The translations under genes and the position numbers were made by a program. A DNA stretch of 57,180 nucleotides from Patescibacteria group bacterium (lineage in GTDB: Bacteria > Patescibacteriota > Patescibacteriia > JBDRGY01). The notes beneath the pieces were generated by a model. It searched no databases. It was not told the origin of the DNA and saw only the letters and a program-made list of their open reading frames with translations. Where the stretch lies: the NCBI GenBank assembly GCA_043817315.1, contig JBDRGY010000003.1:1-57180 (forward strand). Direction: 5' to 3'. Below, in pieces: positions 8,631-20,692 of the stretch; positions within the stretch are counted from its first letter, which is position 1, and each line of letters opens with the position of its first letter.

Positions 8631-8649
8631 TAGTGTAAAAGATACACTT
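8631..8649. promoter_or_regulatory. Candidate NrtR operator (imperfect palindrome)
   Basis: TAGTGTAaAAgATACACTt lies just after the -10 and matches the perfect palindrome at 9359 in 16/19 positions. It contains a GT-N7-AC core. Confidence 0.4.
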
Positions 8650-8659
8650 ATTAACAGCC

Positions 8660-9328
8660 ATGATTAAAAAGAGGTATAAACATGTAGTAATAGCCGTCGA
8701 TGTGGTAATTTTTACCATAATCGAAGAGCAGCTACATGTTTTGTTGATTAAGATGAAAAGAAAGCCTTATCTAAAAGCCTGGGCCGCTCCCGGAGGATTA
8801 GTCGATGTTAAAGATTCGGTGGAACAGGCTGCCCAAAAACATCTTCATCTAAAGGCCGGAGTTAAAGACATCTATTTGGAACAGCTTTACACTTTTGGGG
8901 AAGCCAGTCGGGATCCTTTCGGTCGGGTTGTTACGGTGGCTTATTTCGCCTTAATTCCCTCACGGAGCGTTAAACTAAAGACTACCAAAGAATACGGAGG
9001 AGTTAAGTGGTTCCCGGTTGGTAAATTACCTCAATTGGCCTATGACCACCGGCAGATTATTGAATATGCGGTGCACAGATTAAAGCTAAAATTGGAGCGT
9101 TCTAACGTGGTTTACGGCCTATTGCCCCGGGAATTTACCCTGGCCGAGCTGAAAGAGACCTACGAAATAATTTTGGGTAAAAAGATAGATAAAAGGAATT
9201 TCTATAAAAAGGTGAAAACTTTGAAGATTATCAGGGCAACCGGCCGTCTCAGAAGGGGAGAAGCCAACCGGCCGGCTATGCTTTATACTTTTATAACCCG
9301 CCAACCCAAACAGATCAGTGTCCTTTAA
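8660..9328 (+). CDS. nrtR: NrtR-like regulator (degenerate Nudix domain plus C-terminal winged helix)
   Basis: The Nudix box is degenerate: GGLVDVKDSVEQAAQKHLHLKAGV, with KHLHLK in place of REL.EE. The C-terminus, LLPREFTLAELKETYEIILGKKIDKRNFYKKV, is typical of NrtR wHTH domains. Confidence 0.7.
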   Translation: MIKKRYKHVVIAVDVVIFTIIEEQLHVLLIKMKRKPYLKAWAAPGGLVDVKDSVEQAAQKHLHLKAGVKDIYLEQLYTFGEASRDPFGRVVTVAYFALIPSRSVKLKTTKEYGGVKWFPVGKLPQLAYDHRQIIEYAVHRLKLKLERSNVVYGLLPREFTLAELKETYEIILGKKIDKRNFYKKVKTLKIIRATGRLRRGEANRPAMLYTFITRQPKQISVL

Positions 9329-9358: not shown

Positions 9359-9377
9359 TAGTGTATAAAATACACTA
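9359..9377. promoter_or_regulatory. Candidate NrtR operator (perfect 19-bp palindrome)
   Basis: TAGTGTAT-AAA-ATACACTA, located between the nrtR stop codon and the first island promoter. Confidence 0.4.
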
Positions 9378-9580: not shown

Positions 9581-10459
9581 ATGACAGAGCTGTTTGAGAT
9601 TGCTGCCGGCTCAGTGGCTGGCCGCGATCATGTCTTGGCCGGCCGTAATAACCAAGACGCCTATGTCTGGTCTATGTCTGACCAGGCAGTAATCGGCGTG
9701 GTTTGTGACGGCTGCTCCAAGGAGAGGCATAGCGAAGTAGGTAGTCAATTGACTGCTCAGCTTCTAGTGGAGACAATCAGACGCCACCATCTTCAGGGTC
9801 TGGCCAGAGGAAATCCCAATCTGCCGTTCATACATAGGGGTGCCTACTTTCCCTTTTGGGAAAAAGTGCGCCTGGATGTGTTAGCCCAGATCCGGGTTCT
9901 GGCCAATGCCATGGGAGAGAGTTTCAGTCGAACTGTCTGGAACTACTTCCTGTTTACTACGATGGGCTTCATAGTGACAGAACTGGGAGCGGCCTTCTTC
10001 TCCATTGGTGACGGAGTTTTCTTTATCAATGATGAGATGGTACGTCTCGGACCCTTTACCGACAACAAGCCGCCGTACCTGGCTTACGACCTGGTCGACT
10101 TGCCCGACGACAGTTTCGAGTCATCTGACTTGAGATTCCGTCTGGACATCTACCCGCCTGGTGCTGTCGATTCATTGTTGATTGGCACCGACGGGATTCT
10201 CGACTTGATCAAGAGTCAAGACCGAGTTATTCCCGGCAAGACAGAGTTGGTTGGCCCCATCAGTCAGTATTGGGAGAGTGATCGTTTCTTCCGCAACCCA
10301 GACAGCGTACGACGTCGCCTGGTTATCATCAACCGGGAGAGCGTACGAGTGGATCCACAGAAGAGAAGCTTGGTCAAGGAAGTGGGTCGTCTGGCTGATG
10401 ACACTACGCTAATCGTCCTGCGTCGCCAAGTCGAGGCAGAAGGGGTGGTAGAGCCATGA
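9581..10459 (+). CDS. PP2C-family protein phosphatase
   Basis: GR.NQDA, VCDGCS, IGDG, IGTDGI and C-terminal DDTTLIVL motifs. SD ggaggggg. Confidence 0.8.
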   Translation: MTELFEIAAGSVAGRDHVLAGRNNQDAYVWSMSDQAVIGVVCDGCSKERHSEVGSQLTAQLLVETIRRHHLQGLARGNPNLPFIHRGAYFPFWEKVRLDVLAQIRVLANAMGESFSRTVWNYFLFTTMGFIVTELGAAFFSIGDGVFFINDEMVRLGPFTDNKPPYLAYDLVDLPDDSFESSDLRFRLDIYPPGAVDSLLIGTDGILDLIKSQDRVIPGKTELVGPISQYWESDRFFRNPDSVRRRLVIINRESVRVDPQKRSLVKEVGRLADDTTLIVLRRQVEAEGVVEP

Positions 10460-12339
10460 AGTATGTCTATGTAAAAGATAGACGTGTTCGGCTCGACCCC
10501 ACTCGTTCGATCGGCAAAGGGGGAGAGGCGGATGTATTCGATGTCGGTGGCGGAGTGGCTCTTAAGCTATTTAAACCACCTAGCCATCCTGACTACCAGG
10601 GACAACCGCATGAGCAGCAAGCAGCTGAGGTACGTATCACCACCCATCAGCAAAAGCTGCCCGAACTGATGACCAGGGCAAATGTGTTACCCGGCAGGGT
10701 AATAACCCCCATTTCTTTGGCCACTAACCAGGCAGGCAGTCAGATTCTCGGCTATACCATGAAGTTTCTTGATGGCAACGAGATTCTGCTGCGCTTTACT
10801 GATCGTGGCTTCAGACAGACGGGAGTGGAAAACCAAGAGGTGGTCGACATCTTTTGCGATCTGCATCCCACCGTAACCGGAATTCATGGTGCCAGTTTCG
10901 TGATCGGTGACTTCAACGACCTCAACATCTTGGTCAGAGGAACTGAAGCTTGGTTGATCGATGCAGATAGCTTCCAGTTTGGGCCGTACAAGTGCACCAT
11001 GTTCACTCAGCGCTTTGTTGACCCCTTGCTCTGTGATCCCAAGAGATCCAGCCTGATGCTAGCCAGGCCCCATAATCAGGGTTCTGACTGGTATTCCTTC
11101 GCCGTGATGCTGATGCAGTGTCTGCTCTTCGTAGACCCCTACGGTGGAATCTATCGTCCCAAGCAAAAGGGCCAGAGGATTCCTCATGGAGCCAGACCTC
11201 TGCACCGCATCACTGTTTTCAATCCTGAGGTCAAGTATCCTAAACCAGCTATTCACTTTGGAGTGCTGCCGGATGAGCTTCTGCATCACTTCCATCTGGT
11301 GTTTGAAAAGGACCAGCGGGATCCATTTCCCCTGTCCTTGCTGCAAGGGATTCGCTGGACCACTTGTCCCAACTGTGGAGCGGAGCATGCCAGGACCCAG
11401 TGTCCCCAGTGTGCTGAAATGGCTCCGGGGATAGTCAAAGAGAGGATCCAAGTGAGGGGCCAAGTGACAGCTACCCGGATTTTCCAGACCGACGGCCAGA
11501 TCCTCTTTGCCGCCTATCAAGGCGGCAGGATGCGCTGGCTCTATCACCAGAACGGTCAGTATCGGCGTGAAGATCAATTAGTTGTCTTTTCCGGAGACTT
11601 GGATCGTAACGTCCGCTACCGTATCCACGGAGATCAAACTCTGTTGGGAAGCGGCAGCAATCTGGTTACCCTGCAAAGGGGGCAAGAACCAGACAAGATC
11701 AGTGTTGATACCTATCACAATCTACCAATCTTTGATGCCAATAGCCGAAGGCGTTACTGGTTGGATCAGGGTCGGTTGTACTGTGATGGTCAGTTCGGAC
11801 GCGATTACCTTGGTGATGTGCTGCGGGGACAGACTCTATTCTGGGTCGGTCCCAAGTTCGGATTCGGTTTCTACCGGGCCGGAACGCTCAACATTGCCTT
11901 TGTTTTCGACGCCGAACACCGGGGTATCAACGACTCGGTCAAGATTCCGGGTCTACGAGGTCAGCTGGTTGATTCGACCTGTTACTTCACCAAGGATCGA
12001 TGCTGGTTCTTGATATCGGTTCAGGAAGGCGGTAAGATATTTAACCGCTGCTACCTGATTCGGCCCGATGGCACTGTGGAAGCTTCAGCTGAAGCTGAAA
12101 GCGGAGATGATTCCTGGTTGGCCCGCTTGCGCGGCAAGTGTGCTGCCGGTCATTTCCTGATGGTAGCCACGGACGAAGGATTGGTTCGAGTGGAGAGGAG
12201 CGGCGATCAGCTGGTTGTCAGCAAAGAGTTTCCGGATACGGAACCGTTTGTCGATGCCGGTTGTCATCTCTTTCCCTGCAAGGAAGGTATCTACGCAGTG
12301 GATCAGCATGAAGTTCGTCTATTGAAGATCAGCAAGTAA
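10456..12339 (+). CDS. Protein kinase-like protein with an internal zinc ribbon and a large beta-rich C-terminal domain
   Basis: IGKGGEADVF...ALKLF (Gly loop and Lys), GDFNDLNIL (catalytic loop-like), LIDADSF (DFG-like), CPNCG..x8..CPQC. The start overlaps the PP2C stop (ATGA). Confidence 0.7.
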   Translation: MKYVYVKDRRVRLDPTRSIGKGGEADVFDVGGGVALKLFKPPSHPDYQGQPHEQQAAEVRITTHQQKLPELMTRANVLPGRVITPISLATNQAGSQILGYTMKFLDGNEILLRFTDRGFRQTGVENQEVVDIFCDLHPTVTGIHGASFVIGDFNDLNILVRGTEAWLIDADSFQFGPYKCTMFTQRFVDPLLCDPKRSSLMLARPHNQGSDWYSFAVMLMQCLLFVDPYGGIYRPKQKGQRIPHGARPLHRITVFNPEVKYPKPAIHFGVLPDELLHHFHLVFEKDQRDPFPLSLLQGIRWTTCPNCGAEHARTQCPQCAEMAPGIVKERIQVRGQVTATRIFQTDGQILFAAYQGGRMRWLYHQNGQYRREDQLVVFSGDLDRNVRYRIHGDQTLLGSGSNLVTLQRGQEPDKISVDTYHNLPIFDANSRRRYWLDQGRLYCDGQFGRDYLGDVLRGQTLFWVGPKFGFGFYRAGTLNIAFVFDAEHRGINDSVKIPGLRGQLVDSTCYFTKDRCWFLISVQEGGKIFNRCYLIRPDGTVEASAEAESGDDSWLARLRGKCAAGHFLMVATDEGLVRVERSGDQLVVSKEFPDTEPFVDAGCHLFPCKEGIYAVDQHEVRLLKISK

Positions 12340-12450
12340 CCATCACTCAACCAAGGAGGCTGGTATGTCAGTACGAGACGGCCCGCCCTAGCGGACCCAG
12401 ACATTGGTAGCAGTTCAGGATCAAGAACCTCTTACAGAAAGGAAGAGGAA

Positions 12451-13551
12451 ATGAGCAAGATTCAGACCATTCCGATGCCTTCTTTCTTCAGCGCTGCTAA
12501 TGCCGGAGAATGGGGCTACCGGCCCGATGTGGCCAGGCTGGCTGAGCTGGCCCCCAACTGGGCAGCTGAGCACGGTATCAAGGCTTCCGGCACGGATGAT
12601 TTCCGGCTGCATGTCCTGGGTATCGACCAGCAGCGGGATTTCTGCTTCCCCGAAGGAACTCTGTTCGTAGGGGGCAGGAGCGGCAGCGGAGCTATTGACG
12701 ACAGCGCTCGGTTTGCCGAGTACATCTACAGGAATTTGGGCATCATCACCCGGATTGATCTGACCTTCGACACCCACTTCGCCTTCCAGATCTTCTTCCC
12801 CTGGTTCTGGGTGGATACGGCTGGCAAGACTTTGCAAGCTCACACCCTGATCGTGGTCAGTGACGACGGTAAGTCACTTTCCAACATCGGTCTGGATGGC
12901 AGCCTGCTGCACGAGGATGTCAGGCCTAATCCGGCCATGACCTCCTGGCTGGCCAACGGCAACTACGGTTTCCTCTGCCAGTACGCCCTGCACTACTGTA
13001 AGCAGCTCAAGGAAGGCGGCAAGTACACGCTTTATCTCTGGCCGCCGCATTGTCTGCTGGGTGGCGAGGGACATGCCCTGGTCGGAGTGATCCACGAGGC
13101 GCATATGTTCCACGCCCTGGTCAGAGGATCTCAGAACAATGCCGAGGTTAAGGGAGGTAACCCCTTCACCGAGAACTACAGTGTCTTCCGGTCGGAGGTA
13201 CTGACTCGACAGGATGGCCAGGCAATCGCTCAGCGCAACACCCACTTCCTGAAGACGCTGACTGATGCTGATGCCGTGGTCATCGGAGGACAAGCCGCCA
13301 GCCACTGTGTCAAGAGCTCAATCGACGATCTGTTGGACGAGATCATGGCTCAGGACGCGGGATTGGCTCGCAAGGTCTATATCCTCAAGGACTGCATGTC
13401 CTCAGTGGCCATTCCTGACGGATCAGGCGGATTCGCCGTCGACTTCACGGACGAGACTGAAAAGGCGTTCGAGCGATTCACTGCTGCTGGCATGCATCTG
13501 GTGCTGTCGACCGATCCGATGGACACCTGGCCGGATCTCAATCTGGCCTGA
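12451..13551 (+). CDS. Nicotinamidase (PncA/isochorismatase family) with a ~100-aa insertion
   Basis: GIDQQRDFC, FDTH, WPPHCLLGGEGH, VKGGNPFTENYSVF and GGQAASHCV align to the PncA catalytic Asp/Lys/Cys and metal ligands. Confidence 0.7.
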   Translation: MSKIQTIPMPSFFSAANAGEWGYRPDVARLAELAPNWAAEHGIKASGTDDFRLHVLGIDQQRDFCFPEGTLFVGGRSGSGAIDDSARFAEYIYRNLGIITRIDLTFDTHFAFQIFFPWFWVDTAGKTLQAHTLIVVSDDGKSLSNIGLDGSLLHEDVRPNPAMTSWLANGNYGFLCQYALHYCKQLKEGGKYTLYLWPPHCLLGGEGHALVGVIHEAHMFHALVRGSQNNAEVKGGNPFTENYSVFRSEVLTRQDGQAIAQRNTHFLKTLTDADAVVIGGQAASHCVKSSIDDLLDEIMAQDAGLARKVYILKDCMSSVAIPDGSGGFAVDFTDETEKAFERFTAAGMHLVLSTDPMDTWPDLNLA

Positions 13552-13609
13552 TTTCTGGGGCAGTAAGTGGCAGTAGTCAATTTCTACATCAGAAACAGGA
13601 GGTAATCAG

Positions 13610-14431
13610 ATGAGTCAGGCCCCAGATGTTAAGGAACTGCTGAGTTCAGCCAAGGAAGAGGGAAGTATCTCCCAGTCGACCTTCGAGCTGCTCAGTGATG
13701 TCGATATCGGCGCCCGGATCCAGGCTGGACTGGGACTGACCGTGGATGATGTCCAGGCCAGTGAGGTCTTTCTGGTCACTCTGCTGATCGATGACTCAGG
13801 TTCCATCCGCTTTGCCGGCAATACGCAAGTGATGCGAGATGGCAACAACCTGATCATCGATTCCCTGATAGCCACTAAGCAGGTGGACAACATCCTGATG
13901 TCGACCCGCTACCTCAACGGCGACATCATCAGCCCCTTCGTCCTCATCGATCAGGCGGTGCGTCTTGACACCAGCAACTACGACCCCAACGGTGGTACTC
14001 CGCTTTACGACATGACTCTGGAGACCCTGGGCACAGTACTGGTCAAGTCCCAGGAGTTTGCTGATCAGGGCGTAATGGTGCGGTCGATCACGGTCATTGT
14101 CTCCGATGGCAATGACCAGCATTCACCGCGTCAGCACGGTGGTCGGGGAACTGCTCCGGCTGACTGTGCGGAGCTGGTCAAGAAGATGTTGCTGTCAGAA
14201 CAGCACATCGTGGCGGCCATGGGCATCGATGATGGCACAACGGACTTCAAGGATGTGTTCCGGTCAATGGGTATCCACGATGAGTGGGTTCTGACACCGG
14301 GCAACAACGAGAGTGAGATCCGCCACGCCTGGGGGTTCGTCTCCCAGTCAGCGGTTCGGGCTTCTCAGGGAGCAGCCAGCTTCTCGGAGACGGCTCTGGG
14401 CGGCTTCGGCGAGGAAGACGACGGCAGTTAG
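13610..14431 (+). CDS. vWA-domain protein (TerY-like)
   Basis: MIDAS motif LLIDDSGSI, GGTPLYD, VIVSDGNDQ. Confidence 0.75.
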   Translation: MSQAPDVKELLSSAKEEGSISQSTFELLSDVDIGARIQAGLGLTVDDVQASEVFLVTLLIDDSGSIRFAGNTQVMRDGNNLIIDSLIATKQVDNILMSTRYLNGDIISPFVLIDQAVRLDTSNYDPNGGTPLYDMTLETLGTVLVKSQEFADQGVMVRSITVIVSDGNDQHSPRQHGGRGTAPADCAELVKKMLLSEQHIVAAMGIDDGTTDFKDVFRSMGIHDEWVLTPGNNESEIRHAWGFVSQSAVRASQGAASFSETALGGFGEEDDGS

Positions 14432-14538: not shown

Positions 14539-14558
14539 TTGTTGTTTCTAAGAGAGGT

Positions 14559-14611
14559 TTAACTAAGTAATCTTGGTTAAATATCTCTGGCCTTAAACCG
14601 AGTTTGAGGCC
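14559..14611 (+). promoter_or_regulatory. Island leader motif, copy 2
   Basis: TTAACTAA-gtaatc-TTGGTTAA, then atatc, then TCTGG within GGCCTTAAA-ccgag-TTTGAGGCC. Lies downstream of the predicted -10, so it should be transcribed. Confidence 0.55.
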
Positions 14612-14677
14612 AAATAAACGGAGGAAACTTGGTATTCTTTGGATCGTCCTTTGAGATATTAATGAGAGGAGGCTGTA

Positions 14678-16060
14678 ATGGCCGAGCGAATTGCTCTCTT
14701 CGGAGGCAGTTTCAATCCGCCTGGGATGCACCATCGTTTGGTGGTGGAGCGGTTGCTACAGTCTTTTGAACGAGTGGTGATCATCCCCTGTGGTTTCCGT
14801 CCCGACAAGGAAACGACTAATGATGTGGAACCGATCCACCGTGCGGTAATGGCTGATCTGGCTTTCGGAGATTTACCGGGAGCAGAAGTAGTCCTTGATG
14901 ATCTGGAACAGGGAATCTTCACCAGAACCCATCAGTTGGATCAGATTTACCGGGAACAGGGTGAGGTTTGGCATGTGGTTGGTGGCGATCTGATCAAGGA
15001 AGGTAAAGATCGTCGGTCGGTGATCCAGAGGGAATGGCAGAAAGGACCGCAGGTTTGGCAAGACTGCAATTTTGCAGTTGTAGCCCGGCCCGGATACCGC
15101 TATTCCCAGGATGATCTGCCGCCACACAACCAGATGATGACCCCGATTGTTGAAGGCTCCAGTTCGGAGATTCGACAGAGAGCGTTCAACCACTTGCCTT
15201 ATGGGGATCTGGTGACTGCTAGGGTGGCCCAATACATCGAGCGCTACGCTCTGTACCGGGGTCGCCCCCCCTATCATTCAGCCCGTTTCAGTCTGGAGGA
15301 GCCTCGTCCTTTTGTCTTCTGCGATACGCAGAACTCACGAGCCTGTGAGTTGGCCAGAGGACTTGATAGCTTCCCCAGCCCCAACTGTATTCTGGTCCTG
15401 GGCGGCGATGGTACTATGCTGCGGGCTATCCGTGAGCACTGGCGCCTGAGGCTGCCCTTTATCGGCATTAACCTGGGGCACTACGGATTCAAGCTCAACG
15501 AAGATGATGGTTCTATCATCGACGGTGACCAGGTTAGGCTGCAAGACTTGGTGATAAGAAACTTGCCCTTGCTCTACGTGCAGACTTCTGATAATCAGGG
15601 ATCTGTAACAGATCATCTGGCTTTCAATGACGTCTGGATAGAGAGACAAGGAGGCCAGACTGCCTGGATCGAAGTTGCGGTTGACAAGGTGGTGCGTCTC
15701 CACAAGCTAGTCGGTGACGGCGTACTGATTGCAACAGCGGCTGGTTCCACTGCCTATGCTAGTGCTATGGGTGCCTCGGCCTTGCCGGTTGACGCTCCGG
15801 TTCTGATCATGGCGGGATCCAACGTTTTCTCGCCGGCCGGCTGGAAAGTGGCCAACTTACCACTTGAGGCTGATATCGAACTACGCGGTTTGGACACCGG
15901 CAAGCGGCCCCTGGATGGCTTTGTGGACGGAGAGCCTCTAGGTGAAGTTGTCCGCCTGTGCGCCAGGATAAGTCGGACTGCTTCAGCCGAAGTGGCTTTT
16001 GTGCCTACTTATGATATTGCTGAGAAGCTGACTCGAATCCAGTTTCCGGAGGGAGGGTAA
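14678..16060 (+). CDS. Fusion of NMN/NaMN adenylyltransferase (NMNAT-like) and NAD kinase
   Basis: N-terminus: FGGSFNPPGMHHR, HRAVMADLA, SSSEIR. C-terminus: ILVLGGDGTMLRAI, NDVWIER, GDGVLIATAAGSTAYASAMGA (NadK motifs). Confidence 0.8.
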   Translation: MAERIALFGGSFNPPGMHHRLVVERLLQSFERVVIIPCGFRPDKETTNDVEPIHRAVMADLAFGDLPGAEVVLDDLEQGIFTRTHQLDQIYREQGEVWHVVGGDLIKEGKDRRSVIQREWQKGPQVWQDCNFAVVARPGYRYSQDDLPPHNQMMTPIVEGSSSEIRQRAFNHLPYGDLVTARVAQYIERYALYRGRPPYHSARFSLEEPRPFVFCDTQNSRACELARGLDSFPSPNCILVLGGDGTMLRAIREHWRLRLPFIGINLGHYGFKLNEDDGSIIDGDQVRLQDLVIRNLPLLYVQTSDNQGSVTDHLAFNDVWIERQGGQTAWIEVAVDKVVRLHKLVGDGVLIATAAGSTAYASAMGASALPVDAPVLIMAGSNVFSPAGWKVANLPLEADIELRGLDTGKRPLDGFVDGEPLGEVVRLCARISRTASAEVAFVPTYDIAEKLTRIQFPEGG

Positions 16061-16062
16061 CC

Positions 16063-16365
16063 ATGTCCAAGTCAGAACTGGCGGTGAAGTTGACCATTAA
16101 GCGGGAAGGTGACAACGTCTTTGTCATCGGTCTGCTTGGTCATCAGGGTGCTCTACAGATTGTGCCCAGCCTGCGTGACGAGGATTTGATCATCGAGCCG
16201 GGTGGACGGGCCCACCTGGAGTTCCGTACCATTACTCAGAAGCCGATGGTTCAGATCTGCCGCAGCGACGGTGAGGTAATACTGACCCGGGACCTGGATC
16301 GCGATGAGATTCTGATCACCTTCGATCCCTGGGATCATATCGCCTCGGTCCCCGTCTCCTGGTAA
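16063..16365 (+). CDS. Hypothetical 100-aa protein, tightly coupled to the fusion gene
   Basis: ATG 2 nt after the upstream stop, island-like G+C, no family recognised. Confidence 0.5.
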   Translation: MSKSELAVKLTIKREGDNVFVIGLLGHQGALQIVPSLRDEDLIIEPGGRAHLEFRTITQKPMVQICRSDGEVILTRDLDRDEILITFDPWDHIASVPVSW

Positions 16366-16379
16366 GAAGCTCTTCTCTT

Positions 16380-16426
16380 GTCTGGCAGTAGACCCTAGCG
16401 GGTTGCTGCCAGACAGATTATTTTTT
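16380..16426 (+). terminator. Rho-independent terminator
   Basis: GTCTGGCAG...CTGCCAGAC followed by TTATTTTTT. Confidence 0.7.
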
Positions 16427-16485
16427 CAGAAAAGGGTAACTAAATACTTGGTTATCGCTTTCTGGTCTCAAAGCGATTTGAGACT
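16425..16485 (+). promoter_or_regulatory. Island leader motif, copy 3
   Basis: TAACTAA-atac-TTGGTTA (16437-16454), then tcgctt, then TCTGG within GGTCTCAAA-gcga-TTTGAGACT (16464-16485). 56/61 identical to copy 4. Confidence 0.55.
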
Positions 16486-16537
16486 ATCGATCATTACAAT
16501 TGACAAGGATAAACCCCCAAGAACAGGGAGGAATAAA

Positions 16538-17326
16538 ATGGAGCAGAGATCTTCTGTTACCGTTCCTTCCTTGTTCATTCAGACAAGGGGGGAAGATTCG
16601 TTTAAGGTAGCACTGCAGCTGACCACAGCTGCCAGCCGGTTTGTAGTTAGACTAACCGGTGGTTGTGGTTACATGAGAGAAGCTGACGCTAGGGGGATGT
16701 ACGATCTGTTCAGGGGTGCCTTTGCTGGTTACCTGGGAGCTTTGCTCTTTGGGGGAACCAGAATGGTACGTAAAGACGATCACTCTGTGGTGGTGCCTGG
16801 GATTACAGAAGTAGCACCGCTAATCGGTCAACATTGCCCTGGTTCTATGGTTATGGGTGTCATTCCTCGCACTCAGGATCTCAAGGTTTCTGAAGCGGGG
16901 TTGATTGTCCACCAAGAACCAGACAACGACTTCCTGACCGTTATTCATCCAGACCAGCAGGTCTGTGTGGTGGTCCAGAAATCAGCTGACCAGGAAGTTC
17001 CCTGGGAGGCTGAATACCTGGAGTGCCTGCGGATTATGCATAATCTAAGGGAGCATGCCAAGTTTGCTTCTCTGCTTATCAGCTACAACGGCGGTTCAGT
17101 AACCGAGAAGGAAATCCTAGCAACCGCCAAACTAGGTTGGCCGGTTCTGCTGATCAACGGCAGCGGTCGAATCTCTGACCAGTATGCCAATGATCAAGAC
17201 TTCCTGGAGCAATACCCCAACGTAGCAGTGGCTTGGAGGGACGTTGCTTCGTTCCGAGAACAACTGGTTCGTTTGGGCGCTCTGCATGGCGTTAACCCTG
17301 AGTTATCCCAGGTTGAAAGGGGGTAG
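16538..17326 (+). CDS. SLOG-superfamily protein, TRPM-type (LSDAT-like), paralog 1
   Basis: Start moved from 16403 to the ATG behind SD gggagg, because the track extension covers the leader motif. Motifs: LTGGCG, LFGGTR, SYNGGSVTEKEI, WPVLLINGSGRISDQYA (compare TRPM GSGR.AD). Confidence 0.65.
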   Translation: MEQRSSVTVPSLFIQTRGEDSFKVALQLTTAASRFVVRLTGGCGYMREADARGMYDLFRGAFAGYLGALLFGGTRMVRKDDHSVVVPGITEVAPLIGQHCPGSMVMGVIPRTQDLKVSEAGLIVHQEPDNDFLTVIHPDQQVCVVVQKSADQEVPWEAEYLECLRIMHNLREHAKFASLLISYNGGSVTEKEILATAKLGWPVLLINGSGRISDQYANDQDFLEQYPNVAVAWRDVASFREQLVRLGALHGVNPELSQVERG

Positions 17327-17386
17327 GAAGGCGTATCACCTCTAGGCACTATAGGCCAAGGGAAGGGCTACAGAAAGGGAGGTTGT

Positions 17387-18166
17387 GTGAAAGGACCATA
17401 CGCGGTAACGGCACCAGGTGGCAAGCTCAACCTGATGGTGATGGATGCATCGGACGGTGTTCCTGCCGCTTTTGCCCTGATGGGCACCCTGGCCGAGCGC
17501 AAGGTAGCGCTGCGTCTAGGAGGCGGCTGCAAGGGTATGGACACCAACGACAAGGCAGCAATGCTGGCCTACTTCCGGGATGCCCTACGGGGCTTCAACG
17601 GCTTGATCTGGTCTGGCGGCACTCGTCAGGTCGATGGGAACGACCAGGTGAACCCCATGGTCACCGACGTGCCCGGCGTGATTGCCGCTGAGAACCCCGG
17701 CGCTGTGGCTCTGGGTACAGTACCCCGGGTCGAGATGCTGACCCTACAACAGGATTCCCGACTGGTTCTGGACCAGTGGGGCACCGTGCCCAATCCGACT
17801 ATGTCCGGTATCCTGGTGGTACAGAACGGCCCGGACGGTGAGTTGGACTGGGACGGCGATGTAGATACCTACATCGCCATGATGGAGAGCTGGCGTACCT
17901 ACGCTAACTTCACGGCCCTGGGCTTGGTCGCCTGGAACGGCGGAGCGGTCACCGAGCAGGAGATTATCAAGGCCGCCAGCAAGGGCTGGCCCGTGATCCT
18001 GATCAAGGGATCGGGTAGGGTGACCGACGAGATCGCCACCAAGCTGGCGGCGGACGATCCGGCGCTGATCGCCAAGCTACCGCAGGAGTTCAAGATCATC
18101 GTGGCCGACATCGCCGATCCCAACACGCTGCGAGTGGCCCTGACCGAGCACGGCTTCCTGGGATAG
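17387..18166 (+). CDS. SLOG-superfamily protein, TRPM-type (LSDAT-like), paralog 2
   Basis: GTG start behind gggagg. Motifs: LGGGCKG, WSGGTR, AWNGGAVTEQEI, WPVILIKGSGRVTDEIA. Collinear with paralog 1. Confidence 0.65.
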   Translation: MKGPYAVTAPGGKLNLMVMDASDGVPAAFALMGTLAERKVALRLGGGCKGMDTNDKAAMLAYFRDALRGFNGLIWSGGTRQVDGNDQVNPMVTDVPGVIAAENPGAVALGTVPRVEMLTLQQDSRLVLDQWGTVPNPTMSGILVVQNGPDGELDWDGDVDTYIAMMESWRTYANFTALGLVAWNGGAVTEQEIIKAASKGWPVILIKGSGRVTDEIATKLAADDPALIAKLPQEFKIIVADIADPNTLRVALTEHGFLG

Positions 18167-18180
18167 ACATTCTTGTCGAC

Positions 18181-18216
18181 AGGAGGAGGGGTGAGCATGG
18201 CTCATCCCTCCTACCT
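18181..18216 (+). terminator. Rho-independent terminator (weak T-tract)
   Basis: GGAGGGGTGAGC-atg-GCTCATCCCTCC followed by TACCTATTTATT. Confidence 0.5.
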
Positions 18217-18221
18217 ATTTA

Positions 18222-18282
18222 TTCAGAAAATGGTAACTAAATATTTAGTTATCGCTTTCTGGTCTCAAAGAGATTTGAGGCT
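18222..18282 (+). promoter_or_regulatory. Island leader motif, copy 4
   Basis: Perfect 18-nt palindrome TAACTAAATATTTAGTTA (18234-18251), then tcgctt, then TCTGG within GGTCTCAAA-gaga-TTTGAGGCT (18261-18282). Confidence 0.55.
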
Positions 18283-18346
18283 TGCGTACCTTACAATGTA
18301 GCTAAGTAGGAAAACACCTATGGCGACTAGCCAGGAGGTTAGTGTT

Positions 18347-19591
18347 ATGTTTGAGCCGATCATCCGCACCCTGATGGATATTGATTTCTACAAGTTCACT
18401 ATGGGACATCTGATTTTCCTGATTCCCAGCTACCGTCGTTTGCGCGTCAAATTCGCCTTCAGGAACCGCACCCCTGGCGTGGCTCTGGCCGATATTATGT
18501 CAGAAGAGGCTTTGCGTTGGCAGCTAGATCAGGCGATGACTCTGCGCTTCAACAACTCAGACTTGCATTACCTGCGGGGAACCAACGAGTACGGTCGTCG
18601 TATGTTCGACGAACAGTATTTGGAGTTCCTGCGGGGATACAGCCTGCCTTCTTATCACCTGGAGCGATCTGGCGACACCTATGTCCTGGAGTTCGAAGGC
18701 CCCTGGGCTGAGGTGACCTACTGGGAAACCATTGCCCTGGCTATCATCAACGAGCTGTACACTCAGGCAATGATCAGCGGCTTCAGCTCCTTCGATCAGG
18801 ATGTGGTCATGGCCGAAGGCCGGATGAGGCTGGCAGACAAGATCTCCAGACTGCGAGCGGCACCTTTCGACCTGACTCTCTCTGATTTCGGGACGCGACG
18901 TCGTTGGAGCCGGTTCTGGCAAGAATATGTAGTCAGGACTCTGGCCGAAGAACTGCCCCGTCATCTGCTGGGTACTTCTAACACCTGGCTGGCCATGAAG
19001 CTCGGCTTGCTGCCGATGGGCACCTCGGCTCATGAGCTGCCCATGGCTGTATCCGGACTGTTTCATGACAGCGACGAAGGGATTCTTCATTCCCAGATGC
19101 AGGTGCTGGATGACTGGTGGGAGCTTTACGGCGAAGGCCTGTCCATTGCCTTGCCTGATACCTATGGTACGGAATCGTTTTTCCGAGCCATGGGAGAGAA
19201 AAGGGCTAGGGACTGGAAGGGTACCCGCCAGGATTCAGGCGATCCCTTCGAGATTGGAGAGATGACCATTGCCTTCTACGAGGGCCTGGGCATCGATCCC
19301 AAGGACAAGCTGCTGGTGTTCAGCGACGGACTGGATGTGGATACCATACTGGCTCTGTTCGAGCGGTTCCAGGGCCGGATTCGTCCCACCTTTGGTTGGG
19401 GCACTAACCTGACCAACGATCTGGGCATTAAGCCGCTTTCTCTGGTGATCAAGGTGGTGGAGAGTAATGGCCACGGTACGGTCAAGCTGTCTGACAACCT
19501 GGCCAAGGCCATTGGAACGTCGGATGATGTGGAGCGTTTCAAGCACATCTTCGGCTACACCAAGAACACCTACACCCCAGTTACCTACTAG
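18347..19591 (+). CDS. pncB: Nicotinate phosphoribosyltransferase
   Basis: Collinear with E. coli-type PncB: DFYKFTM, DFGTRRR, GTSN, MGTSAHE, RQDSGDP, VFSDGLD, GWGTNLT, KLSDN. Start placed at the ATG 8 nt after AGGAGG; the track start at 18320 adds 9 aa. Confidence 0.9.
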   Translation: MFEPIIRTLMDIDFYKFTMGHLIFLIPSYRRLRVKFAFRNRTPGVALADIMSEEALRWQLDQAMTLRFNNSDLHYLRGTNEYGRRMFDEQYLEFLRGYSLPSYHLERSGDTYVLEFEGPWAEVTYWETIALAIINELYTQAMISGFSSFDQDVVMAEGRMRLADKISRLRAAPFDLTLSDFGTRRRWSRFWQEYVVRTLAEELPRHLLGTSNTWLAMKLGLLPMGTSAHELPMAVSGLFHDSDEGILHSQMQVLDDWWELYGEGLSIALPDTYGTESFFRAMGEKRARDWKGTRQDSGDPFEIGEMTIAFYEGLGIDPKDKLLVFSDGLDVDTILALFERFQGRIRPTFGWGTNLTNDLGIKPLSLVIKVVESNGHGTVKLSDNLAKAIGTSDDVERFKHIFGYTKNTYTPVTY

Positions 19592-19753: not shown

Positions 19754-20692
19754 ATGGCTTGGTTGACTATGGACGAAATTCCCAGCTTCCTGCGGATTGA
19801 TGCGAAAAAGGAAGTCGAGATCATCGTACAGAGGATGACAGAGTTCCGAGACCGAGAACTTCTCATGACTGGCAAAGAGAAAATGGCCATTGTCTTGGGG
19901 CTTTCCGGGGGCCTGGACTCTGCCGTCGTTTGTCGTCTCTGGACGGAAGTGGTTGGCCCGGAGAACGTCTATCCGGTGATCATGCCCGGTCCTACTTCCA
20001 ATAGTGACAGCGACGATCTGGCCCGGCTACTGGCCATTAGACTGCAGACACCACAAGCAAATCGGGTCAAACTGCCGATTTCTGAGGCTGATATTACTCA
20101 CGCCCTGGGTGCGGATCTGGATTCCGAGGGTCCGGGCGGCCTGACGCGTCGCGGTAATGTGATGGCCCGGTTGAGGATGCTACGACTGAGAGATCGAGTG
20201 TCTCAGCTGGCCGAGGAGCATCCAGAAGTGATGTTCCGACTGGCCGGAACCGAGAACGCTTCGGAGCACTGGATGGCTTTCTTCACCATCTCTGGCGACC
20301 AGTCATCAGATATTGAGATACTGACCGGTTACCTGAAGACACAGGTCTGGCAGTTGGGTAAGCACTTCTGCCTTTCTCCAGAGATCCTGGATCGGGATCC
20401 TTCGCCGGAGCTGGGAGACTGCCAGACGGATGAAGAGGCCCTGCCCTCGGTTTACTGGCAGGTTGATTCGGTACTTTTCCACTTGCTGCGGATGGGAGAC
20501 GATCCGGCGGATGTACGCCGCATGCTCCGGGAAGAGAAGCTCAGGGATCTGCTGGAGCTGGTGCATTCACCTCTCCACACCTTTATCCAGTACGACACCG
20601 CTGAGCGGATCCTGCAGTGGATCATCGACCACCTGGGCAAGCTGGAGATTCCCTATGAGTTAACCGGGGATCGGTTGTACCACCAGAGTTAG
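19754..20692 (+). CDS. nadE: NH3-dependent NAD+ synthetase
   Basis: PP-loop GLSGGLDS, GNVMARLRM, GTENASE....FFT..GD...D...L.GL.K, DPSPEL. Confidence 0.75.
   Translation: MAWLTMDEIPSFLRIDAKKEVEIIVQRMTEFRDRELLMTGKEKMAIVLGLSGGLDSAVVCRLWTEVVGPENVYPVIMPGPTSNSDSDDLARLLAIRLQTPQANRVKLPISEADITHALGADLDSEGPGGLTRRGNVMARLRMLRLRDRVSQLAEEHPEVMFRLAGTENASEHWMAFFTISGDQSSDIEILTGYLKTQVWQLGKHFCLSPEILDRDPSPELGDCQTDEEALPSVYWQVDSVLFHLLRMGDDPADVRRMLREEKLRDLLELVHSPLHTFIQYDTAERILQWIIDHLGKLEIPYELTGDRLYHQS

Follow-up and report, generated by a model that had tools for sequence, protein, structure and literature searches.

A SLOG gene pair among NAD-salvage genes

Two adjacent genes, here termed SLOG-A and SLOG-B, were analysed on a stretch of 57,180 nucleotides from a Patescibacteria group bacterium (contig JBDRGY010000003.1 of assembly GCA_043817315.1), the whole of which is referred to as the window. 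The described proteins nearest to them in fold are the MHR1/2 regions of TRPM channels, members of the TRPM-type clade of the SLOG superfamily for which Burroughs et al. (2015) coined the name LSDAT, as quoted in PMC13143021. In TRPM2, R358, together with the N-terminal end of the helix that follows, binds the two phosphates of ADP-ribose within MHR1/2 (PMC6759353). The active site of LOG enzymes is built where the two subunits of a dimer meet, and in CgLOG a loop binds the 5'-phosphate while Glu122 and Arg99 are the proposed catalytic residues (PMC4979012). SLOG domains also sense, or are predicted to degrade, signals derived from ADP-ribose (ADPr) in defence and counter-defence (PMC9503650). 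In ThsA of type I Thoeris, a SLOG domain recognising a nucleotide derived from nicotinamide adenine dinucleotide (NAD) is fused to a SIR2 effector, has a TIR partner and lies in a defence island.

On the regulatory side, the motif of NrtR is a 21-bp palindrome with a GT-N7-AC core, and ADP-ribose releases the protein from DNA; NrtR regulons include prs and ADP-ribose-linked pentose genes (PMC2330246, Rodionov 2008). The NrtR-regulated Preiss-Handler operons of that study (pncA-pncB-nadD-nadE) have their regulator, operator type and enzyme set in common with the window and are without SLOG proteins, whereas the Patescibacteria-type operons add the SLOG-A/B pair and, often, Nudix and radical-SAM genes.

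Compared with these systems, SLOG-A and SLOG-B have the fold of TRPM MHR1/2 and a GSGRxxD motif whose Arg would be the equivalent of R358 of TRPM2, but they are stand-alone proteins of about 260 amino acids (aa) without channel or ankyrin regions, and they are prokaryotic, encoded by two co-evolving paralogous genes in metabolic operons. They also retain a LOG-type Glu that is replaced by Ser in TRPM8. With LOG and PpnN they have in common the superfamily and, by sequence register, an imperfect counterpart of PGGxGTxxE, the motif NGGxxTxxE, with a Glu at the position of the catalytic Glu; they differ in giving no LOG Pfam match, in an unconserved catalytic Arg, in an extra beta-rich insert and in a presumed heteromeric state as against a homodimer or hexamer, and matches to that family (LOG-like 1rcu and a phage LOG model) were weak only. 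From ThsA they are set apart by the lack of an effector, a TIR partner or a PADLOC match. Within Pfam, the two proteins and nearly all of their homologs score above the LSDAT_prok threshold, and the difference lies in a fixed A/B pair tied to NAD salvage.

Overall, with a probability of about 0.8, SLOG-A and SLOG-B form a heteromer that binds ADP-ribose or a pyridine nucleotide and is linked to NAD salvage. A search of the literature on LSDAT or SLOG proteins together with NAD salvage, NrtR or pncB found the pair undescribed, although the defining 2015 paper lay outside that search and may mention NAD neighbourhoods. The domain family itself is already in Pfam; what the searched papers do not describe is the fixed A/B pairing, the membership in the NrtR regulon, the distribution over Patescibacteria and DPANN, the sm100 fusion and the shared structured leader, all of which are presented below.

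Family, fold and obligate pairing

An earlier note made from the bare sequence had described two collinear paralogs of about 260 aa with a TRPM-type SLOG domain and no effector. Both open reading frames (ORFs) are present on the plus strand (Table 1), and the proteins are paralogs, with 37% identity over 194 residues (E 3e-40) and a profile-profile probability of 100% (E 2.3e-54). Pfam LSDAT_prok (PF18171) was matched at 29.9 bits by SLOG-A and 35.5 bits by SLOG-B against a cut-off of 25.4 bits, the match being partial and restricted to the model's C-terminal half (about positions 89-184 of its 195). The same family was found in 16 of 17 SLOG-A and 30 of 30 SLOG-B homologs, and LSDAT_euk in 4 of 17 and 10 of 30, respectively (14 of the 47 members). 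A profile of the 30 SLOG-B homologs, compared with all PDB sequences, retrieved TRPM8 (3.7e-4) and TRPM2 (1e-3), with a weak match to LOG-like 1rcu (E 0.097).

The AlphaFold2 models (mean predicted local distance difference test, pLDDT, of 92.2 for SLOG-A and 92.7 for SLOG-B) point in the same direction. Foldseek searches of the PDB placed TRPM MHR1/2 in 50 of the top 50 matches of the SLOG-B model and in 49 of the top 50 of the SLOG-A model, for which the best E was 7e-9; over the top 50 of each, the TRPM matches spanned E 5e-9 to 5e-6 and TMq 0.48-0.69. TRPM2/3/4/5/7/8 are represented among them, including TRPM2 with ADP-ribose and TRPM4 with ATP. The TRPM-type assignment is hence borne out by sequence profile and by predicted fold, with the best matches lying inside the SLOG superfamily, and SLOG-A and SLOG-B are classed by profile and model as members of the LSDAT clade with a predicted Rossmannoid alpha/beta fold. 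The description as stand-alone proteins also holds, as Pfam, PHROG, NCBIfam-type and PADLOC scans show no other domain in either.

The family is small: from 1.84 billion representatives, the SLOG-B profile retrieved 369 clusters at E<=1e-3, a number that falls to 177 at E<=1e-10. At least 144 clusters in each search (SLOG-A query; SLOG-B query) are stand-alone proteins of roughly 200-370 aa, and the SLOG-A homologs, at least 144 in number, range in identity from 44 to 95%. One further match of the SLOG-A model, PDB 9nw3 chain 6A (TMt 0.57), is a stand-alone protein of 256 aa from the ciliary-tip central pair of Tetrahymena; because it has the same fold, free-standing LSDAT-like proteins exist in eukaryotes too.

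The arrangement of the two genes was followed through 64 loci compared with the window genes, 48 of them distinct. SLOG-A lies directly upstream of SLOG-B on the same strand in 42 of the 48; of the remaining six, three are without upstream sequence and three have a gap of 0.4-1.1 kb between the two genes. The distance between the called genes runs from an overlap of 32 nt to +71 nt, and the orthologs of SLOG-A and of SLOG-B form separate, conserved groups. The picture of a tandem pair is thereby kept as regards the two paralogs and revised as regards their independence: this is an obligate A-then-B gene pair, the products of which probably associate. LOG enzymes have their active site at the dimer interface, and therefore an A/B heterodimer is a reasonable expectation; physical heteromerisation of SLOG-A with SLOG-B is probable by this analogy.

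Embedding in NrtR-controlled NAD-salvage operons

Gene order and operator positions firmly support that the pair belongs, in its genetic and regulatory setting, to an ADP-ribose-responsive NrtR-controlled NAD-salvage regulon. Predicted NrtR boxes stand beside nrtR in all ten distinct loci that carry this gene. They lie directly upstream of pncA-...-A-B operons in three loci (L003, L013, L015); elsewhere two boxes precede nadD-pncB-A-B (L025), and one box lies in the divergent promoter before SLOG-A (L023). A loose box pattern (<=1 mismatch) is only modestly enriched, with 24 observed against 15.5 expected, and because this overall enrichment is weak the argument from boxes rests on their positions. 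The window nrtR is 50-59% identical to the nrtR genes that adjoin the pair in other loci.

Among the 25 distinct loci of at least 10 kb, ten have nrtR and/or pncA, pncB, nadD or nadE within 10 kb of the pair, and four have a second recurrent neighbour block, described below. The gene most often found immediately upstream of SLOG-A is pncA (L013, L015, L043, L045, L058), while pncB or nadD follows the pair immediately in many loci. In Uhrbacteria-type loci, nrtR is followed by pncA-A-B-nadD-nadK-pncB-Nudix-radical SAM-nadE, and in L003-type loci by pncA-nadD-A-B-pncB-Nudix-radical SAM-nadE; L001 and L035 repeat the gene order of the window at 40-63% protein identity. The NAD link that had been proposed from the window turned out to be stronger than could be seen there, the pair being part of a conserved NrtR/Preiss-Handler neighbourhood in many genomes. 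The more exact location given by the earlier note, between NAD kinase and pncB, is right on the downstream side; upstream, the gene is a NadD-NadK fusion (nicotinate mononucleotide adenylyltransferase plus NAD kinase), after which a 100-aa ORF intervenes. If its nicotinamidase-like protein is counted, the window would encode the whole Preiss-Handler route plus NAD kinase.

A structured element was found in the leaders of nadD-nadK, SLOG-A and pncB (Table 1). The 82-nt stretch before SLOG-A (16419-16500) is 87% identical to the stretch before pncB (18216-18297), while the copy before nadD-nadK has diverged; all three fold into a common two-hairpin structure of about 67 nt. A covariance model built from the window copies finds more of them in relatives, at L034 1104-1171, L035 7655-7725 and 9175-9243, and L058 3431-3501, where they precede Nudix-pncB, nadD-nadK and SLOG-A. 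Over six copies, 94% of the cells pair and 11 of the 23 pairs have changed on both sides; slid controls gave 33-54% pairing, although the 94% is flattered by an alignment that had been fitted to the model. Rfam holds no family for the element, and its models returned nothing at E<=1 save an irrelevant sub-threshold sroD match elsewhere. The element is put forward as a candidate NAD-related cis-regulatory RNA of a new kind, the alternative being two palindromic operators; an RNA leader is tentatively favoured over DNA palindromes because several G-U pairs would mismatch on the other strand. As the element is common to the three leaders, the pair appears to be co-regulated with nadD-nadK and pncB.

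Predicted nucleotide pocket

Conservation was computed over 42 distinct SLOG-A and 38 distinct SLOG-B sequences. Both paralogs share about 24 positions with a conservation of 90% or more, a good number of which are polar; the columns read R..GGC..M, G, G.TR, T, P, P, Q, W, NGG..T..E, WP, G..R, plus a C-terminal L. All four motifs quoted in the earlier note were found in SLOG-A and SLOG-B and fall among these columns. Each group has in addition its own invariant residues: TGGCG, FGGTRM, PGITE, H137, Q140, D151, E159 and C163 in SLOG-A, and GGCK, S76, DPMVT, R114, D129 and WDGD in SLOG-B. Taken together, the common and the group-specific residues form the pattern expected of an old duplication whose products cooperate, with both nucleotide pockets intact.

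Residues 180-219 of SLOG-B align without gaps with residues 327-366 of human TRPM2, so that R211 of the GSGR motif corresponds to R358, the phosphate-binding residue introduced above; G208 and R211 each reach a conservation of 90% or more in the two paralogs. The motif KGSGRVTD of SLOG-B likewise aligns with EGSGRIAD of TRPM8, and the likeness to the TRPM signature on which the original assignment leaned is confirmed at both channels. The second element of the pocket, N184-G-G-x-x-T189-x-x-E192, is invariant or nearly so in both paralogs and is in register, by sequence position, with P114-...-T119-...-E122 of CgLOG. E192 thereby occupies the position of the catalytic Glu122, where TRPM8 has Ser. 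The previously suggested likeness to the LOG motif is upheld as far as the register and the final Glu are concerned; it does not extend to a LOG Pfam match, and the second catalytic residue, Arg, is unconserved in SLOG-B. The predicted site would accordingly be read as a TRPM-type phosphate clamp plus half of the LOG catalytic pair.

Proposed function and competing explanations

In the mechanism that we propose, SLOG-A and SLOG-B would be two subunits of one heteromeric nucleotide-binding protein, each with a TRPM-MHR1/2-like Rossmannoid pocket in which the GSGR Arg would hold a phosphate or diphosphate, the NGGxxT loop would hold the ribose-phosphate and the invariant Glu would sit at the position of the LOG catalytic Glu. 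The substrate would be the nicotinamide mononucleotide (NMN) that NAD-dependent ligase leaves behind, or some other product of NAD breakdown; nicotinamide and ribose-5-phosphate would be released, and NAD(P) would be rebuilt by PncA, PncB, NadD, NadE and NadK, encoded on either side. Such a heteromeric LOG-like N-glycosidase acting on a pyridine nucleotide is the function that we put forward tentatively, at somewhat less than even odds. It is favoured because there is no output domain and the genes stand among enzymes, most tightly with pncA and pncB; because the invariant polar residues kept by both paralogs, the LOG-type Glu among them, are unusually many; and because an organism that depends on salvage and uses NAD-dependent ligase must have some way of returning NMN to NAD. 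Patescibacteria and DPANN have minimal genomes and depend on salvage, and NMN nucleosidase is an activity not known to have an assigned gene; a literature search for such a gene yielded nothing informative.

Several observations weigh against the salvage-linked heteromer or against its being an enzyme. Eleven of the 25 distinct loci of at least 10 kb have none of the reference NAD genes nearby, and some pairs stand in housekeeping or phage-like contexts; in the window itself, the box precedes the first gene of the island and none lies directly before SLOG-A. The LOG motif is imperfect in both proteins, P having become N and the third Gly being lost, and no member among the 47 matched the LOG Pfam family (Lysine_decarbox) at E<=1. 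LOG Arg99, in the MHxRK helix, has no conserved counterpart in SLOG-B, where the helix reads M-E-x-W-(R/Q/K/L/T); in SLOG-A, L-R is frequent at this helix and not invariant, the equivalence being by sequence position only. The nearest structural relatives, TRPM MHR1/2, are non-catalytic ligand sensors, and the fusions of relatives to a GNAT-like N-terminus or to sm100 resemble sensor-plus-partner architectures.

In a different account, SLOG-A/B would be a non-catalytic sensor or regulator whose ligand is ADP-ribose, NAD(P) or a precursor, in the way of MHR1/2 of TRPM2 or the SLOG domain of ThsA, and which tunes PncB, NadD-NadK, the PncA-like protein or the kinase-, PP2C- and vWA-like proteins by protein contacts, in the manner of a PII-type metabolite sensor, here for NAD homeostasis. 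Such a role is almost as likely as N-glycosidase activity, since every one of the closest structures is a sensor and the LOG Arg is absent. The top structural matches, several of them solved with ADP-ribose or ATP, are ligand-sensing domains, and the diphosphate-binding Arg of TRPM2 is conserved; the LOG catalytic Arg is not, and a LOG Pfam match is missing. The recurrence of the pair beside the PP2C-like/kinase-like/vWA-like block and the fused relatives would also suit it. Against it, no output domain or partner is present universally; the pair is also found by itself or among unrelated genes, with no obvious target enzyme encoded close by; and the LOG-type Glu, which TRPM8 has lost, stays invariant in both paralogs, as do many other polar residues. 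Unlikely, on the other hand, is the cleavage of AMP, released together with ribose-5-phosphate when the co-encoded Nudix protein splits ADP-ribose, into adenine and ribose-5-phosphate as a precursor of phosphoribosyl pyrophosphate for PncB. LOG-family enzymes do hydrolyse AMP (PMC4979012), NrtR regulons elsewhere contain prs and ADP-ribose-linked pentose genes (PMC2330246), and a Nudix gene follows pncB or the pair in L003, L013, L015, L034 and L035, its best PDB relative being an ADP-ribose pyrophosphatase (weak, E 4.5e-3); yet the window has no such gene, it is pncA and not the Nudix gene that adjoins the pair most tightly, and the catalytic caveats given for the N-glycosidase apply equally.

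A place in biological conflict, as a counter-defence sponge or hydrolase (of gcADPR and the like) on a mobile island or phage, or as a signal sensor, is the least probable of the explanations and is given very little credence. It draws on the known SLOG domains of ADPr-signal defence and counter-defence (PMC9503650), on the GC-rich and probably horizontally acquired character of the window island and on homologous pairs that lie next to NADAR on contigs dense in small ORFs without family. The window gave no match in a megablast against 50,697 phage genomes; SLOG-A and SLOG-B had no match in PHROG, the ten island proteins had none in PADLOC, a scan of IMG/VR found no relative of the pair, and the best match among the viral structures of BFVD was a weak LOG-family hit (TM 0.44). 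TIR or SIR2 was absent from every neighbourhood read, the host contig is a Patescibacteria chromosome, the conserved neighbours are biosynthetic genes under NrtR, and some pairs follow ribosomal, secY, adk, ruvX or recO genes. For the window pair, an origin in phages or defence was rejected on these phage, PHROG, PADLOC, IMG/VR and BFVD results. The sponge or anti-Thoeris role that the earlier note had entertained is likewise disfavoured for the window, which is chromosomal, unmatched in those resources and related to pairs in several housekeeping contexts; for the few relatives on phage-like contigs next to NADAR, such a role may still hold.

Returning to the N-glycosidase, a fuller version of the proposal would make SLOG-A/B a new pyridine-nucleotide-cycle enzyme of Patescibacteria/DPANN-type symbionts, an N-glycosidase or base-exchange enzyme for NMN or NAD (or a derivative) made from TRPM-type SLOG domains and expressed with the salvage enzymes under NrtR and a structured RNA leader; in this complete form it is doubtful. 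If true, the ADP-ribose-binding domain of TRPM2 would have in this pair its closest free-living relative among prokaryotes, and the position of the pair beside an ADP-ribose pyrophosphatase-like Nudix gene would mirror the combination of SLOG and NUDT9-H in the channel. The module may mark a missing step or control point in the NAD maintenance of symbionts, and could serve as a simple soluble prokaryotic model of the TRPM MHR1/2 nucleotide site. With a LOG-type catalytic Glu retained alongside a TRPM-type phosphate-binding Arg, it may also show what the ancestor of the TRPM sensor did, catalysis or sensing.

Distribution and origin

Named genomes with the pair belong to Saccharibacteria, Absconditabacterales, Uhrbacteria, Adlerbacteria and Moraniibacteria. 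Other carriers are a contig binned as Aenigmatarchaeota (DPANN) and metagenome-assembled genomes (MAGs) labelled Gammaproteobacteria; MAGs of Melainabacteria/Obscuribacterales have more divergent versions, a few further pairs occur on phage-like contigs, and one pair follows a ribosomal/secY/adk/map/ruvX/recO cluster. The window is part of a Patescibacteria chromosome: its PNPase shares 60-68% identity with proteins named Patescibacteria, Kerfeldbacteria or Nomurabacteria, and genes for ComM, FtsX, EamA, surface DUF11/SpaA proteins and tRNAs lie in the flanks. It is firmly supported that the SLOG-A/B module is of cellular origin and concentrated in streamlined symbiont genomes.

Between 9.5 and 22.9 kb, the window has a GC content of 0.54, with GC at third codon positions (GC3) of up to 0.78 (in SLOG-B), versus 0.42 for the rest; nrtR, at 0.43, is host-like. 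Horizontal acquisition is the probable origin of the salvage island, the pair included, which would then have come under the control of an NrtR either resident or transferred with it. Because the Aenigmatarchaeota-binned contig (L001) has the same gene order, transfer between lineages of episymbionts is suggested.

As a separate observation, the pairs of the 120-kb contig L064 and of the 69.5-kb contig of homolog P0116 lie among dozens of small co-directional ORFs without family, with NADAR near the former and thymidylate kinase, Peptidase_M78 and RlaP on the latter; these contigs are possibly large phages or mobile elements, although IMG/VR had no match.

Gene starts, neighbours and additional partners

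The features of the window are collected in Table 1. SLOG-A starts at an ATG and SLOG-B at a GTG, each with a GGGAGG Shine-Dalgarno sequence 5-6 nt ahead. A longer SLOG-A from the TTG at 16403 overlaps the conserved non-coding element, and the N-termini of homologs give it no support. A scan for sigma-70 promoters around the two genes gave matches no more numerous than in shuffled sequence.

Table 1. Positions of the pair, its neighbours and the regulatory features in the window
Feature	Position	Strand	Remarks
NrtR operator box 1	8631..8649	.	TAGTGTAAAAGATACACTT; palindrome just upstream of nrtR; GT-N7-AC core
nrtR	8660..9328	+	Pfam NrtR_WHD 1.6e-21, NUDIX 4.6e-12; Nudix-related ADP-ribose-responsive repressor of NAD genes
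NrtR operator box 2	9359..9377	.	TAGTGTATAAAATACACTA; exact palindrome match, past nrtR and ahead of the island's first gene
Four-gene block	9581..14431	+	Family matches weak
PP2C-like	9581..10459	+	Weak family match
Kinase-like/Zn-ribbon protein, 627 aa	10456..12339	+	Weak family match
Nicotinamidase-like protein, 366 aa	12451..13551	+	Putative; weak NCBIfam PncA match (E 4.7e-4) and D/K/C motifs
Protein with DxSxS (vWA-like) motif, 273 aa	13610..14431	+	Weak family match
Element copy 1	14545..14614	+	Upstream of nadD-nadK; covariance model 78.8 bits; -31.9 kcal/mol, z -7.0
nadD-nadK fusion	14678..16060	+	Pfam CTP_transf_like, NAD_kinase; NCBIfam NAD kinase 9.1e-43, NadD 8.7e-21
sm100, 100-aa ORF	16063..16365	+	Starts 3 nt past the end of nadD-nadK
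Element copy 2	16422..16488	+	Upstream of SLOG-A; covariance model 93.8 bits; -25.4 kcal/mol, z -5.4
SLOG-A	16538..17326	+	LSDAT-type SLOG protein, 262 aa; LSDAT_prok 4e-7
SLOG-B	17387..18166	+	LSDAT-type SLOG protein, 259 aa; LSDAT_prok 7.8e-9
Terminator-like hairpin	18184..18212	+	3' of SLOG-B; 13-bp stem, then T-rich tail; consensus match only
Element copy 3	18219..18285	+	Upstream of pncB; covariance model 89.4 bits; -24.9 kcal/mol, z -5.0
pncB (nicotinate phosphoribosyltransferase)	18320..19591	+	NAPRTase 5.2e-48, NAPRTase_N 5.2e-17
nadE (NAD synthetase)	19754..20692	+	NAD_synthase 1.2e-35

The small ORF sm100, in which Pfam, PHROG, NCBIfam-type and PADLOC scans found no family, is homologous to the C-terminal extensions of three SLOG-B homologs of 318-365 aa (P0054, P0063 and P0098; blastp 2e-13 to 2e-8 and a hidden Markov model search). 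These are B-sm100 fusions and provide a Rosetta-stone link; beyond them, no homologs of sm100 were detected. By these fusions, sm100 is probably a lineage-specific third partner of the pair that cooperates with the heteromer in the lineage of the window. In four distant relatives of 640-801 aa (P0244, P0251, P0265 and P0266), an A-like SLOG domain is preceded by some 450 aa of N-terminal sequence, which in one of them gives a weak GNAT (acetyltransferase) match.

The four-gene block adjoins the pair in the same order in L001 (4469-9133), L035 (1025-5715), L041 (80-4068), L016 (13132-17912) and L058, and its composition suggests phospho-signalling control of, or by, a nicotinamidase. A PDB sequence search with its 366-aa and 273-aa proteins gave nothing useful. 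Downstream in the window, three ORFs without family follow nadE.

Two proteins without family (272 and 377 aa), one resembling PurA (Adenylsucc_synt 6.7e-32), one of 395 aa and a Pol-beta-type nucleotidyltransferase of 644 aa make up the second recurrent block. This block was located at L020 428-7015 (the same as L009 and L029), L023 1-6706, L026 4755-8099, L027 4447-7909 and L048 2259-9041, where it adjoins nrtR, NrtR boxes or NADAR, and it looks like an uncharacterised NrtR-regulated pathway. The Nudix and radical-SAM genes between pncB and nadE of the Uhrbacteria-type operons lie at L003 12291-13903 and L013 13725-15422, and in L001 a radical-SAM gene follows pncB (12202-13131). A gene of the Asp/Glu-racemase family occurs near the pair in three differing contexts (L006/L007 10880-11680, L003 17432-18193 and L013 20119-20757).

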